Shown here: in pieces, positions 3,489 to 52,475 of the stretch
How positions within the stretch are numbered: position 1 is the first letter of the stretch
Layout: every line of letters begins with the position of its first letter
IMG/VR virus record: IMGVR_UViG_3300009132_000005
Coordinates: 3,530-67,529 of that record
Direction: 5' to 3' (one strand)
DNA length: 64,000 nucleotides
Source of the DNA: a virus
Made by a program: the position numbers and the translations under genes
Notes under the pieces: generated by a model
Seen by the model: the letters and a program-made list of their open reading frames with translations, nothing else
Database searches by the model: none
What the model was told of the DNA's origin: nothing

Positions 3489-3628
3489 TATTTTTTTAAT
3501 GCTTTTTTAACAGCTTTAGCTTTTGCTTGTATTTTTAAAGCTTTAGCTATTATAATATCATCAACAGTAGTTTTACTCCAAAGTAAAACCCACATATCTT
3601 TCCAGTATTCTTTAGTTAATTTCCACAT
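3488..3628 (-). CDS. 46-aa cationic amphipathic peptide (not in ORF track)
   Basis: MWKLTKEYWKDMWVLLWSKTTVDDIIIAKALKIQAKAKAVKKALKK*. Its stop overlaps the endolysin ATG (TAATG) and it fills the gap exactly. Confidence 0.65.
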   Translation of the reverse strand: MWKLTKEYWKDMWVLLWSKTTVDDIIIAKALKIQAKAKAVKKALKK

Positions 3629-4930: not shown

Positions 4931-6138
4931 TATCTAAATGTAAAATTAACCCCGAAGTTTGAGTTAAATATTTTTGAGTCCCAAAATTTAGTATATTCAC
5001 CTTCAACAAATATACCAATTGCTTTACTAACTTTCCAACCAAAAACTAAACCAGCTTGGTAGTCGTCCCATTGTTCACCTTCTAATAAATCATTATGTCC
5101 ACCTTTGCCCCAGCTGTTTCTGTGAAGATAGCTAAAGTCTTCATTACCTCTCACATACTTGTGATAAGGTAGTATGTAATTTCCGTATGCATGTAGCCAG
5201 AAATTAGCTTTATAATGATAGAAGTCAAAACCGACGATAGGTGCAACTTCAGCAAAAGGCTCTAATTCAGCCCAAGCTTCTTCATTGAAACGATTCATCA
5301 ATTCAAAAAATACATCATCTCTAAACTGTAGATCTGTATAAGCAACTATTTCACCACCAGCATCTACCCAATACCAATCACTAGTTTCAACACCATTTTC
5401 GTCAGTTGATGTATAATATATATCATCATATCCATATAAAAACCCTAATGAATACCATGGATTAGCTGGATATTCAAATGACTGACCTGTATTAGGATCT
5501 GTCCATGTTTCTATTTCATTTAACCATATTTCAATTGGGTTATATCCGTAAGGTTGTTGGTGAGTTCTATATATTGCACCAGCAGATATACTAAACTTCT
5601 TACCAATAGGCAACCTGGCTCTTATTTCACCAGATGTATATTCAAAACCTACATTACCTTGTTCTCTAGCTTCAAACTTACCAATATGATATTTACCTGT
5701 ATGTCTTACAAATAATCTTTTATTAGTAAATTCTTCACCATCTTTTCTTTCTTTTTCCCAATGTAATAGATATTCTAGCCCTTTTACAGCTGAAGTTGGT
5801 GCTGATAAAGCTATTTGTTTTTCAACTTTTTGATCACCTGTCCAGAAAGTTCCAGGCTTAGTTTCATAATCAAACCTAGCTAGTTTACGTATACCGAAGC
5901 CATATCTATAATCATATGGGTGATAGACTGTCTCGTCTACAACTTCTGGTATTGCATATAAATCATCTGGGTTTGTTCTAACGAAGTACTCTTTGTTTTC
6001 CATTTTAGCATTACCTACATTACCGGCAGCATAAAATGTACCATATTTTAAGAAGTCATTATATACTTCTTTAAAAAAGCTTTGCCCTATAGAATTAAAG
6101 CTAACTAATAAACATAGTATTGTTATTATTTTTTTCAT
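4930..6138 (-). CDS. Secreted, probable outer-membrane beta-barrel protein
   Basis: Sec signal peptide, aromatic-rich alternating strands, C-terminus NFGVNFTFR resembling a beta-signal. Confidence 0.55.
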   Translation of the reverse strand: MKKIITILCLLVSFNSIGQSFFKEVYNDFLKYGTFYAAGNVGNAKMENKEYFVRTNPDDLYAIPEVVDETVYHPYDYRYGFGIRKLARFDYETKPGTFWTGDQKVEKQIALSAPTSAVKGLEYLLHWEKERKDGEEFTNKRLFVRHTGKYHIGKFEAREQGNVGFEYTSGEIRARLPIGKKFSISAGAIYRTHQQPYGYNPIEIWLNEIETWTDPNTGQSFEYPANPWYSLGFLYGYDDIYYTSTDENGVETSDWYWVDAGGEIVAYTDLQFRDDVFFELMNRFNEEAWAELEPFAEVAPIVGFDFYHYKANFWLHAYGNYILPYHKYVRGNEDFSYLHRNSWGKGGHNDLLEGEQWDDYQAGLVFGWKVSKAIGIFVEGEYTKFWDSKIFNSNFGVNFTFR

Positions 6139-50459: not shown

Positions 50460-50658
50460 AGATTATCCAGCAGACAAAATAGCAGCAAAACTCAAACAAG
50501 TTGAAGAGTTTGAAGCTAAATACGGTGAATCTACACGTACTATTGCATGGAAAAAGTGGTGTAATGACATCAACTATCGCAAACGTGAGTGGCAATTCAG
50601 GCAAGGTGTTGCAGAATATGCACTAAACAATGCACATAAAGCATTTATGGCGGGATAG
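50443..50658 (+). CDS. Early hypothetical protein
   Basis: Likely start MKLMYKDYP. Stop lies inside the tRNA 5' end. Confidence 0.55.
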   Translation: MKLMYKDYPADKIAAKLKQVEEFEAKYGESTRTIAWKKWCNDINYRKREWQFRQGVAEYALNNAHKAFMAG

Positions 50659-50721
50659 AGCAGGTGGTAGCTCGCGAGCCTCATAAGCTCGAGGTCGAAG
50701 GTTCGACTCCTTCTCCCGCAA
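50649..50721 (+). tRNA. tRNA-Met(CAT), initiator-like
   Basis: Cloverleaf: GGCGGGA/TCCCGCA, D stem GAGC/GCTC, anticodon CGAGC-CTCATAA-GCTCG, T arm GAAGG-TTCGACT-CCTTC. CCA not encoded. Confidence 0.9.
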
Positions 50722-50741
50722 CTAATTTAAATTTAATAACT

Positions 50742-51605: not shown

Positions 51606-51885
51606 TTCAATTAAAGCATGGCATGAAATGCAAGAAGAAAAATTAGTTTCGCTACAAGCAGATGAAGCTATAGCTGAAGAACTAGGAAGAGCTAAATATA
51701 TATTCTTACTAGATTTTGGAAACGGTAAAGTATATAGATATGACATTAGCTCATTATGTAATGAAAAAAATAAATGGAATCCAGACTCTGAATCTTGTGA
51801 AGCATTTTTATATGGTGCAGGTCACAAGCTTACTGACTGCGAGTGGATGGTAACAAACACTGGTGGTATAGAGTTCGGTAACTAA
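51598..51885 (+). CDS. Early hypothetical protein
   Basis: YIFLLDF..GKVYRY...GH....CEWM. Confidence 0.6.
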   Translation: MSDSIKAWHEMQEEKLVSLQADEAIAEELGRAKYIFLLDFGNGKVYRYDISSLCNEKNKWNPDSESCEAFLYGAGHKLTDCEWMVTNTGGIEFGN

Positions 51886-51905
51886 ATAAATTTCGCCAAG
51901 AACAT

Positions 51906-52085
51906 TTGTGGTGCTAAACAGCGAGGCCTGATAAATCATTGCTGCAGTGCGTACGGAAGTGTATTATGTGAGGCGGTTTAGCGGCGGCATACTGGTCACG
52001 TTAGATAAGAAAACGAAGACACTTATCAAAACAGAAAGAGTGGATAAATGACAATACTAGGTAACTACCAGTCCACAACTGCTGC
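51906..52085 (+). ncRNA. Unidentified structured RNA (~180 nt)
   Basis: Nested helices TTGTGG/CCACAA, GCTAAAC/GTTTAGC, CAGCGA/TTGCTG, ACTGGT/ACCAGT and GATAAG/CTTATC with GNRA loops, in GC-enriched intergenic DNA. Confidence 0.55.
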
Positions 52086-52090
52086 TTTAT

Positions 52091-52192
52091 GGGCGTGATA
52101 TGGTAAGAGTATGATTAAAGGCGTAATTCCTTAGCGGGATGTGAGAAACGGCTCGATGATTACTAACGCAGGTTCGACTCCTGCCACGTCCA
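52091..52192 (+). ncRNA. tmRNA-like/tRNA-like RNA 2 (Ala-type acceptor)
   Basis: GGGCGTG/CACGTCC-A acceptor with G3:U70 and GCAGG-TTCGACT-CCTGC T arm. No D stem or canonical anticodon arm. Confidence 0.65.
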
Positions 52193-52202
52193 CAATACAA
52201 TA

Positions 52203-52227
52203 TAAATACGACAATAGTAGGATAATA
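52203..52227 (+). promoter_or_regulatory. Early promoter-like motif, copy 5
   Basis: TAAATACGA-caatagta-GGATAATA. Confidence 0.7.
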
Positions 52228-52247
52228 TAATTAAATAATAAATAAAT

Positions 52248-52475
52248 ATGAAATCAATCTACGAAATGCTCAAACCCGAACTAAAGGACGAGCTTAAATC
52301 AAGTGCTAGAAAATATGACAGCGCTAAAAGACTAAAGTATGTACTTATGTCTAAAACTATATGGCAAGACCTAACAGTGTCCGAGCTATCAGAACTTATA
52401 ACTTATTCTAACCTAACTAGTTACAAAATGTCACCATATGACTTTATGTACGGTGATAATTTATTAACTAAGTAA
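52248..52475 (+). CDS. Hypothetical protein
   Basis: ORF after promoter copy 5. Confidence 0.6.
   Translation: MKSIYEMLKPELKDELKSSARKYDSAKRLKYVLMSKTIWQDLTVSELSELITYSNLTSYKMSPYDFMYGDNLLTK

Follow-up and report, generated by a model that had tools for sequence, protein, structure and literature searches.

A phage RNA gene that resembles tmRNA's tRNA-like domain, and its relatives in uncultured marine phages

In the available text of PMC3968760, the tRNA-like domain (TLD) found in transfer-messenger RNA (tmRNA) is defined by an acceptor stem that is charged with alanine only, with G3:U70 and A73 as the keys, by a T stem-loop and a reduced, stemless D loop that must make contact with the T loop for SmpB to bind, and by a helix, H2, that occupies the place of a long variable arm. 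RNAs reduced to about this domain have been described: PMC4131195, in the part available, lists 'Mycobacterium phage DS6A (TLD only)' and, citing Mao et al. 2009, reports that a DS6A-TLD-like molecule, in chargeable and in unchargeable form alike, is a strong inhibitor of tmRNA, possibly through titration of SmpB. The same source and PMC11915505 report tmRNAs without a coding sequence (CDS-less) in jakobid mitochondria and some plastids; the available text of the latter describes those of Mallomonadaceae plastids (~65 bp), restates the DS6A result and mentions 2-residue tags in some bacteria, and PMC4131195 further notes that some phages carry full tmRNA genes and that elements integrate into ssrA. 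Here we examine a TLD-only tmRNA-like RNA gene of 102 nt at 52091..52192 on the + strand of a 64,000-nt stretch of viral DNA (IMG/VR record IMGVR_UViG_3300009132_000005, positions 3,530 to 67,529; hereafter the window), which an original prediction had picked out from the letters alone as a miniature tmRNA-like RNA. The kind being already known from DS6A and organelles, what is added here is a family with swappable inserts.

Anatomy of the element

The gene is present as a single copy in the 67.5-kb genome, its mature ends are predicted, and it scores 74 bits on a covariance model of its family (R1, described below). All of its parts lie on the + strand. The first seven letters, read directly as GGGCGUG (52091..52097, with G3 at 52093), form the 5' strand of the acceptor stem; in DNA letters, GGGCGTG at 52091-52097 is complementary to CACGTCC at 52185-52191, which gives the seven pairs G1-C72, G2-C71, G3-U70, C4-G69, G5-C68, U6-A67 and G7-C66. 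The 3' strand CACGUCC runs with the discriminator A from 52185 to 52192 (52185..52192; U70 is 52189 and the A is 52192). Behind the 5' strand comes the D-loop analogue AUAUGGUAAG (DNA letters ATATGGTAAG; 52098..52107), delimited in a family alignment (A1, below), which has no 4-bp D stem and in which a 2-bp mini-stem is possible around UGG (52099-52100 with 52104-52105). A P2-like helix follows, AGUA at 52108..52111 pairing with UACU at 52161..52164, for which both constrained folds and changes on both sides within the family speak, and it encloses a hypervariable insert of 49 nt (52112..52160), here a module bounded by UGAUUAAAGGCG and CGGCUCGAUGAU. An AAC linker (52165..52167; AAC in 41/49 family members, GAC in 4/49) leads to the T arm, GCAGG / UUCGACU / CCUGC (52168..52184), whose stem pairs show compensatory changes, and the discriminator is followed by the trailer CAA (52193..52195), with no encoded CCA; family trailers are CTA or CAA.

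The acceptor with G3:U70, the D-like loop, the AGTA/TACT helix, the AAC, the T arm and the discriminator A that the original prediction had listed are all present in the sequence. Its figure of ~55 nt inside was right as to a short interior, with the correction that the insert itself is 49 nt and that the larger figure includes the helix; its remark that CCA is unencoded, as for the real tRNA here, agrees with the trailer CAA and with tRNA-Met (50649-50722), where the next letters are CTA. The unconstrained single-sequence fold of the element is unremarkable (z -1.09) and does not recover the T arm, so that the case for the structure rests on comparison with relatives. Two other readings of the insert were tried and rejected: a mini-ORF (open reading frame) with a resume codon (AUG AUU AAA GGC GUA AUU CCU UAG, by eye), the frame of which is not conserved, and a C/D-box or K-turn, for which Rfam sR16 gave 16.4 bits (E 1.1) and no consistent K-turn was seen by eye.

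In a permissive Rfam scan of 51850-52300 (451 nt), the best tRNA-clan match is tmRNA (RF00023), at 32.4 bits and E 1.9e-11, in an alignment spanning model positions 1-374; both ends match, and the 306-position core is replaced by 51 nt. At the Rfam gathering thresholds tRNA-Met is the sole match in the window, and it is also the only gene that ARAGORN calls there (50649-50722), the element being called neither tRNA nor tmRNA. Of the 9 relatives' loci that were scanned, 6 have elements, 7 in all, for which tmRNA is likewise the best tRNA-clan model (25.2-37.9 bits); the relatives' RF00023 scores overall run from 25.2 to 39.1 bits, all below the 47-bit gathering score, and on five relatives' loci ARAGORN called no element a tRNA or a tmRNA.

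Every sequence-level TLD feature of the definition in the available text of PMC3968760 is found in the element. It has the acceptor with G3:U70 and A73, the T arm, the reduced D loop without a stem and a P2 helix, and it has no anticodon arm. What a standard bacterial tmRNA has in addition is missing: there is no mRNA-like domain with resume codon, tag frame and stop codon, the insert being 49 nt here and absent from a 47-nt form, and there are no pseudoknots PK1-PK4 in the P2 loop, the inserts folding as simple or branched hairpins; the only pseudoknot found belongs to another RNA (X, below), outside the element and upstream of G1. Nor is there a tRNA cloverleaf with D arm and anticodon arm, and tmRNA outscores tRNA in the Rfam clan. 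The predicted TLD anatomy without an mRNA domain therefore holds up, both tmRNA ends being matched, the core absent and the features of the definition present. The two programs that had been proposed as checks agree with it: Rfam ranks tmRNA first in the tRNA clan, at a score under gathering, and ARAGORN calls nothing at the site; the element is not an ordinary, intron-containing or decayed tRNA.

The family in related phages

We collected relatives' loci by the ligase gene (72 loci) and by the adjacent 153-aa ORF (11 loci), and most of them contain the same element. Alignment A1 comprises 49 distinct sequences, the window's own included, extracted with a filter that demanded a perfect acceptor, a perfect T stem, 5' GGG and U70, and also a UUCGANU-type loop. 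The members share the ends GGGCGUGAWAUGGUWAG ... AAC GCAGG UUCGANU CCUGC CACGUCC A, then CUA or CAA, and range in total length from 47 to 175 nt. Under the specified structure 92.0% of the A1 cells pair, as against 80.5% in shuffled alignments (0/500 shuffles reach the observed value) and 33-51% with a slid partner, and 10 of the 17 pairs change on both sides. Pair 4:69 is CG in 40 members, AU in 6, GC in 1 and UA in 1; the T-stem pairs 167:181 and 168:180 show 8 double changes each, and 169:179 is also compensatory. All 5 of the P2 pairs counted change on both sides, at 64-69% of cells paired, a figure held down by the alignment register. The T loop is UUCGANU in 49/49 members, such a loop having been required by the extraction pattern. 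The acceptor and T arm are near-invariant across phages whose ligases are 66-94% identical.

The covariance model R1, built from A1 and run on the window and 75 loci (824 kb), matches 56 of the 76 sources at E<=0.0036. Forty-six of these matches score at least 45.9 bits; the ten weakest (26.8-34.2 bits) overlap the scores of tRNA and tmRNA ends on R1 (18.9-28.2 bits) and were retained because they are syntenic and show no anticodon arm by eye. Among the 53 ligase loci whose upstream flank reaches 3 kb or more, 45 have an R1 match 0.9-2.6 kb upstream of the ligase (35/53 at the 45.9-bit level), and 8/53 have no R1 match (L044, L045, L046, L050, L055, L066, L068 and L073; L numbers designate loci). 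Since the element matches the Rfam tmRNA model end to end and recurs with covariation in dozens of phage contigs, it is a real conserved gene family, beyond chance.

At position 3:70, 44 of the 56 R1 matches have G:U, including L042, which also encodes CCA. Three have A:U (L028, L082, L053), three G:C (L051, L062, L063) and five U:A (L020, L057, L060, L064, L067), and one is ambiguous (L054). Where it is kept, G3:U70 remains a wobble while the adjacent pair 4:69 takes all four Watson-Crick forms. Judged from these sequences, the alanine identity set is retained in the closer clade and lost in more distant lineages; it belongs to part of the family only, because G3:U70 is lost in 11/56. The recurrence and covariation in related phages that the original prediction had proposed to look for are thus found, with matches in 56/76 sources and both-side changes in 10/17 pairs (pair counts set against shuffles), and its assignment of alanine identity through G3:U70 stands for the window and for 44/56 matches and fails for the 11 in which the pair is replaced, one being ambiguous.

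In all insert-bearing members, constrained folds give a P2-like stem that closes the insert and a hairpin or branched rod inside it. The syntenic element of L005/L075 is 47 nt long and has no insert, and its acceptor and T arm are identical to those of the window's element; because this insert-free form keeps both, the insert appears dispensable and the conserved ends look like the functional core. Near-identical stretches of at least 18 nt occur outside any listed family member for 14 of the 47 inserts of at least 25 nt. Parts of the window's own insert module recur within a different RNA of L071 (2939-2957 and 2975-2992), and a module AAGAAAUAGGAGAY-GAAA-GUCACACUAACUU is found in TLDs (L012, L031), forms a plain hairpin in L050 and L073, and lies within another frame in L044. 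By their sequences, then, the inserts are reusable RNA modules.

Two observations concern members in bacterial bins. L096, a 56-kb low-GC contig in a Bacteroidetes metagenome-assembled genome (MAG), has two family members in tandem (5388-5475 and 5545-5647), the first of which has an encoded CCA next to it; and seven MAG contigs with the element resemble mis-binned phage DNA.

Comparison with host tmRNAs and described TLD-only RNAs

The window covers the greater part of a complete IMG/VR phage genome of 67.5 kb, which has direct terminal repeats and a GC content of about 32%. Among the products of this genome are a GroEL-like chaperonin, giant virion proteins, a primase-helicase, DNA ligase, Erf and thymidylate synthase. 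The ORFs adjoining the element belong to no Pfam or PHROG family, and the protein atlas was uninformative for them. The best isolate matches of the primase are to phages of Cellulophaga (42% identity), Tenacibaculum, Riemerella-type hosts and Flavobacterium, and because of these matches the host is probably a marine member of the Flavobacteriia; the sequencing runs that contain the DNA are marine, seawater and sponge metagenomes.

For comparison with tmRNAs of the likely host class we read 30 Bacteroidia tmRNA genes, out of 137/151 genomes with a match. Their commonest form is GGGGCCG, A plus 2-4 nt, GGUUUUGACAGC ... GUUUGGAC GAGGG UUCGAAU CCCUC CGGCUCC A. In common with the phage family they have A8, GGUU in the D-loop analogue, AC before the T arm, a UUCGANU T loop and A73 followed by C, with GGAC where the phage element has its AAC linker; encoded CCA is absent from 27/30 (3/30 encode it), as in the phage element. 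Their acceptors are GGGGCCG or GGGGCUG in 22/30 and of another GGG type in 8/30. Real Bacteroidia tmRNAs score above 100 bits on RF00023, as against 32.4 bits for the phage element, which is without the resume codon, tag frame and PK1-PK4 of a standard bacterial tmRNA. A scan of species genomes for the 3' 25-mer of the element returned 12 loci, of which seven are low-GC phage-like contigs in MAGs and five lie in high-GC genomes, these last being four whole tRNAs, with GAC or CAC as the anticodon, and a single match that lacks a 5' partner.

The closest described RNA is that of DS6A, which we located at JN698994 28478-28560. It scores 43.2 bits on RF00023 and is laid out as GGGGCCG, CAAUGGUGGUC, one hairpin, AC, T arm, CGGCUCC, A, then CUA. 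R1 gives it 38.3 bits (E 1.3e-7), as compared with 26.2 bits for a tRNA with anticodon UGC (Ala, by eye) and 18.9-28.2 bits for three full-length tmRNAs of MAG loci (two of these labelled Bacteroidetes), matched at their ends, so R1 prefers the known TLD-only RNA over tRNA and over full-length tmRNA ends. Like the present family, the DS6A element is phage-encoded, ~80 nt long, and has a 7-bp acceptor with G3:U70, A73, an AAUGGU-type D-loop analogue, one hairpin at the P2 position, AC before the T arm and a trailer that is CTA, not CCA. Unlike the marine family it comes from a high-GC actinophage, and the available text of PMC4131195 and PMC11915505 names it as one phage sequence rather than as a family; the marine RNAs form a family of many members, of 47-175 nt, with reusable insert modules, lineages without G3:U70 and often an upstream pseudoknot RNA. 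Only generic TLD positions align in the R1 match to DS6A, and independent reduction from different host tmRNAs would be as possible as common descent. The CDS-less organellar tmRNAs, likened here from their description in the available text of PMC11915505, are also reduced to about the TLD; unlike the phage element they are non-viral, descend from a tmRNA resident in the organelle and function together with SmpB that is imported.

We found no description of the marine family in the literature searched, the coverage of which is partial, and the tmRNA database of PMC11915505 may already hold viral entries that belong to it. Searched by blastn against 50,697 phage records, the locus and the surrounding 12 kb gave no match. 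R1 matches five isolates weakly (18-27 bits): Cellulophaga phi10:1, Tenacibaculum JQ, vB_RanS_PJN03, Flavobacterium elemoC and Maribacter Panino. The phi10:1 match was rejected as a family member, as it resembles a long-arm tRNA with anticodon GUA. In Panino (PP540027 27557-27889), an annotated 333-nt 'tmRNA' begins inside tRNA-Asp and ends inside tRNA-Thr and is probably an annotation artefact; its first ~90 nt could form a mini-TLD (G3:U70, UUUGGAC before the T arm), with a 7:66 mismatch and no UGG.

Possible functions and neighbouring RNAs

The near-invariant acceptor and T arm, the G:U pair retained beside a covarying pair, A73, the UGG and the dispensable insert together argue that the tRNA-like top half is in its own right a target of sequence-specific host proteins, for which AlaRS, SmpB and EF-Tu are the obvious candidates. 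Because of this conservation of the top half and the DS6A precedent, for which the available text of PMC4131195 reports inhibition, we tentatively favour, at somewhat less than even confidence, the reading that the element is a tmRNA mimic without a tag, which interacts with AlaRS, SmpB and EF-Tu and disturbs trans-translation in the host. That Bacteroidia tmRNA genes, in the likely host class, mostly leave CCA unencoded (27/30) is consistent with such mimicry.

In the course of events that we infer, the RNA would be transcribed on the + strand together with the neighbouring small RNAs and genes and excised by host tRNA enzymes, RNase P cutting at G1 and 3' trimming coming next, and the host CCA-adding enzyme would append CCA. 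The product would fold as an acceptor/T-arm minihelix in which the UGG of the D-loop analogue docks with the T loop to make a tRNA elbow. In the clade with G3:U70 and A73, the window's element included, host AlaRS would charge the RNA with alanine, and the charged RNA would bind host SmpB and EF-Tu in the manner of tmRNA. With no resume codon, tag or stop codon it would be unable to complete trans-translation, and would for that reason compete with host tmRNA, by titrating SmpB or by occupying stalled ribosomes; the expected outcome is an altered handling of stalled ribosomes and truncated proteins during infection. If the RNAs are charged and bound by SmpB, phages would have turned to interference with trans-translation repeatedly, in abundant uncultured marine phages as well as in one mycobacteriophage, and the family, with dozens of natural variants, among them forms that have or lack G3:U70 and P2 and with minimal forms of 47 nt, offers a natural mutational series for the minimal needs of a TLD.

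A number of results weigh against a tmRNA mimic. The element's Rfam tmRNA score of 32.4 bits is below the gathering score of 47, and the RF00023 score alone is not specific, because in whole-genome searches short matches of 75-77 nt also reach 25-40 bits, one of them (39.9 bits) being a tRNA with anticodon UGC. The 100% pairing of acceptor and T stem in A1 and its 48/48 G3:U70 are partly built in, because the extraction filter demanded them, and G3:U70 is replaced in 11/56 of the R1 matches. In the D loop, covariation suggests a 2-bp mini-stem that is foreign to the description of tmRNA: columns 9:16 are AU in 21 members and UA in 15, and 85.1% of cells pair as against 66.3% in shuffled alignments (RNAalifold and direct count), a pattern that may reflect a real mini-stem or two subclades. 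A search of the phage genome found no SmpB encoded in it, the acceptor GGGCGUG occurs in 0/30 Bacteroidia tmRNAs, and among the 185,579 species genomes scanned the 3' 25-mer of the element lies in no host tmRNA. Finally, the same loci hold acceptor/T-arm minis of 41-47 nt with acceptors that are not of the alanine type, which suggests a more general use of tRNA top-half mimics. Those without G3:U70 lie at L024 3671-3717, L029 3939-3985, L028 3467-3513, L020 3841-3887, L042 912-956 and L011 about 1704-1744; their linkers are for example CUACGGUACUAAAGU or AUGGUUAAU, and they are frequently at the 3' end of a structured RNA.

Engineered tRNA scaffolds, in which a cargo RNA is placed in a tRNA-like frame, are processed and stabilised when expressed in E. 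coli. The main and serious rival to a tmRNA mimic, on account of the lineages without G3:U70, the other minis and the swapping of modules, is a natural 'tRNA scaffold', a generic processing and stability module whose top half would do no more than recruit RNase P, 3' trimming and the addition of CCA; function would then reside in the inserts and neighbouring RNAs instead of in the TLD, and structured RNAs that lie beside or within the module, as well as flanking mRNAs, would be excised and stabilised. We hold this to be rather unlikely, though it accounts for inserts that are hypervariable yet always stably folded, for the 14/47 inserts (>=25 nt) with stretches that occur outside the family, such as the L050/L073 hairpin and the L044 frame, and for the minis of 41-47 nt in these loci, which have unrelated acceptors and lie 3'-terminally on structured RNAs. 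The placement of the element points the same way, some loci having it 5-6 nt past a stop codon and ~12-15 nt ahead of the next ATG, and the element frequently abutting a tRNA-Met gene (L014, L018). For a scaffold, however, structure would suffice, yet the acceptor/T-arm sequence is near-invariant and the insert-free, syntenic 47-nt form retains those exact sequences; and RNase P and 3' trimming are established to need neither a G:U wobble nor A73. The engineered scaffold is moreover a laboratory design, its likeness to the element being limited to interchangeable structured inserts in a tRNA-like frame. If the element is only a processing handle, it would be the natural counterpart of that design.

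A broader proposal, to which we give little credence, is that the TLD is one interchangeable frame of a combinatorial RNA system in marine flavobacterial-type phages, whose frames (the TLD, the 41-47-nt minihelices, the X pseudoknot and an GACGAGUAG...AAGUGAAUWGCUA frame) would draw on a common stock of structured cargo modules; through the tRNA-like frame these would be brought to, or tethered at, the translation apparatus or SmpB-like defence proteins, or else would be able to assemble into larger RNA complexes. Some of the cargo modules have GNRA loops beside receptor-like internal loops.

The relatives' loci also contain a second class of tRNA-like ends, (U/G)AACUAG ... UGAGG UUCGAAU CCUCA CUAGUUA C (L009 3502-3668, L016 3285-3462, L021 3258-3346, L031 2470-2749, L045 and L046), which is preceded by the GACGAGUAG...AAGUGAAUWGCUAGC frame, a frame that also bears variable hairpins.

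Two further functions seem to us improbable, to about the same degree. As a tag-less ribosome-rescue RNA, an alanylated TLD with host SmpB would enter stalled ribosomes, accept the nascent chain and release it untagged, adding rescue capacity during the destruction of host mRNA; the anatomical evidence for this is the same as for a tmRNA mimic, and CDS-less organellar tmRNAs and 2-residue bacterial tags are reported in the available text of PMC11915505. The RNA has no stop codon, however, and there is no known route to release a peptidyl-TLD, the loss of G3:U70 in 11/56 misfits a function that depends on charging, and the DS6A-like molecule is reported in PMC4131195, in the part available, as an inhibitor. 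As a decoy, the element would occupy defences that recognise tRNA or tmRNA acceptor ends, whether through SmpB-like OB folds or as toxins that modify or cut acceptor ends: the CoCoNuT Type IV restriction systems have SmpB-like domains predicted to bind tmRNA (PMC11090510, available text), and the phages keep the protein-facing ends of the RNA invariant, but no such system is linked to these phages or hosts and no matching counter-defence gene is indicated in the window. That the element is left over from the decay of a full-length phage tmRNA, or is an attachment site acquired by copying host ssrA, is highly improbable and largely refuted by the conservation pattern: full phage tmRNA genes and ssrA integration are known (available text of PMC4131195), but the element is conserved with covariation in 56/76 sources, both acceptor halves are present, its 3' end is in no host tmRNA of the species genomes scanned, and the genome has no tyrosine integrase, serine recombinases having been outside that search.

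Upstream of the TLD lies a second structured RNA, X (51977..52089, +), a covarying pseudoknot that ends 1 nt before G1. In alignment A2, of 13 distinct X copies, an outer stem (51980-51987 with 52079-52086) encloses helix S1 (51992-51996 with 52067-71) and helix S2 (52039-52044 with 52072-52077), which crosses S1 and so makes the pseudoknot; 89.9% of cells pair, as against 82.8% when shuffled (0/500 reach) and 29-54% in slid controls, and 9 pairs change on both sides. X has a variable hairpin between CACGUUAG and CAAAACAGAAAG and a minimal form of 76 nt without that hairpin, and it has no match in Rfam at E<=10, known ribozymes and riboswitches included. A two-motif text search placed both X motifs no more than 215 nt upstream of the TLD in 13/48 other distinct members and at least one motif in 17/48; in the remaining members a different hairpin or a stop codon precedes the TLD. 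X is probably co-transcribed with the TLD. The modular inserts and X point to a dense, undescribed repertoire of non-coding RNA in these phages.

One RNA-library run (X20) and three DNA runs were compared with the locus; all consist of contigs and so reveal neither transcript ends nor an added CCA. In X20, a contig links a relative's copy of the insert module to an X-like sequence, which does not amount to evidence that the RNA is transcribed. What remains of the 362-nt gene-free stretch, at 51886-51976 (+), carries motifs common to the relatives' RNAs and is probably further non-coding RNA; its GCGUACGGAAGUGUAUUA is also in the TLD inserts of L027 and L049, and its CUGAUAAAUCAUUGCU lies upstream in L052. 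After the TLD, 52196-52247 holds a conserved AT-rich motif, AAAUACGA, ~6 nt, GGAUAAUAUAAU, which is also found downstream of the TLD in L003, L005, L006, L007, L017, L019, L022, L065 and L069 and is a candidate phage promoter of the next gene. The tRNA-Met(CAU) gene at 50649-50722 (+) has, in the Rfam alignment, a G1-A72 mismatch atop its acceptor stem.

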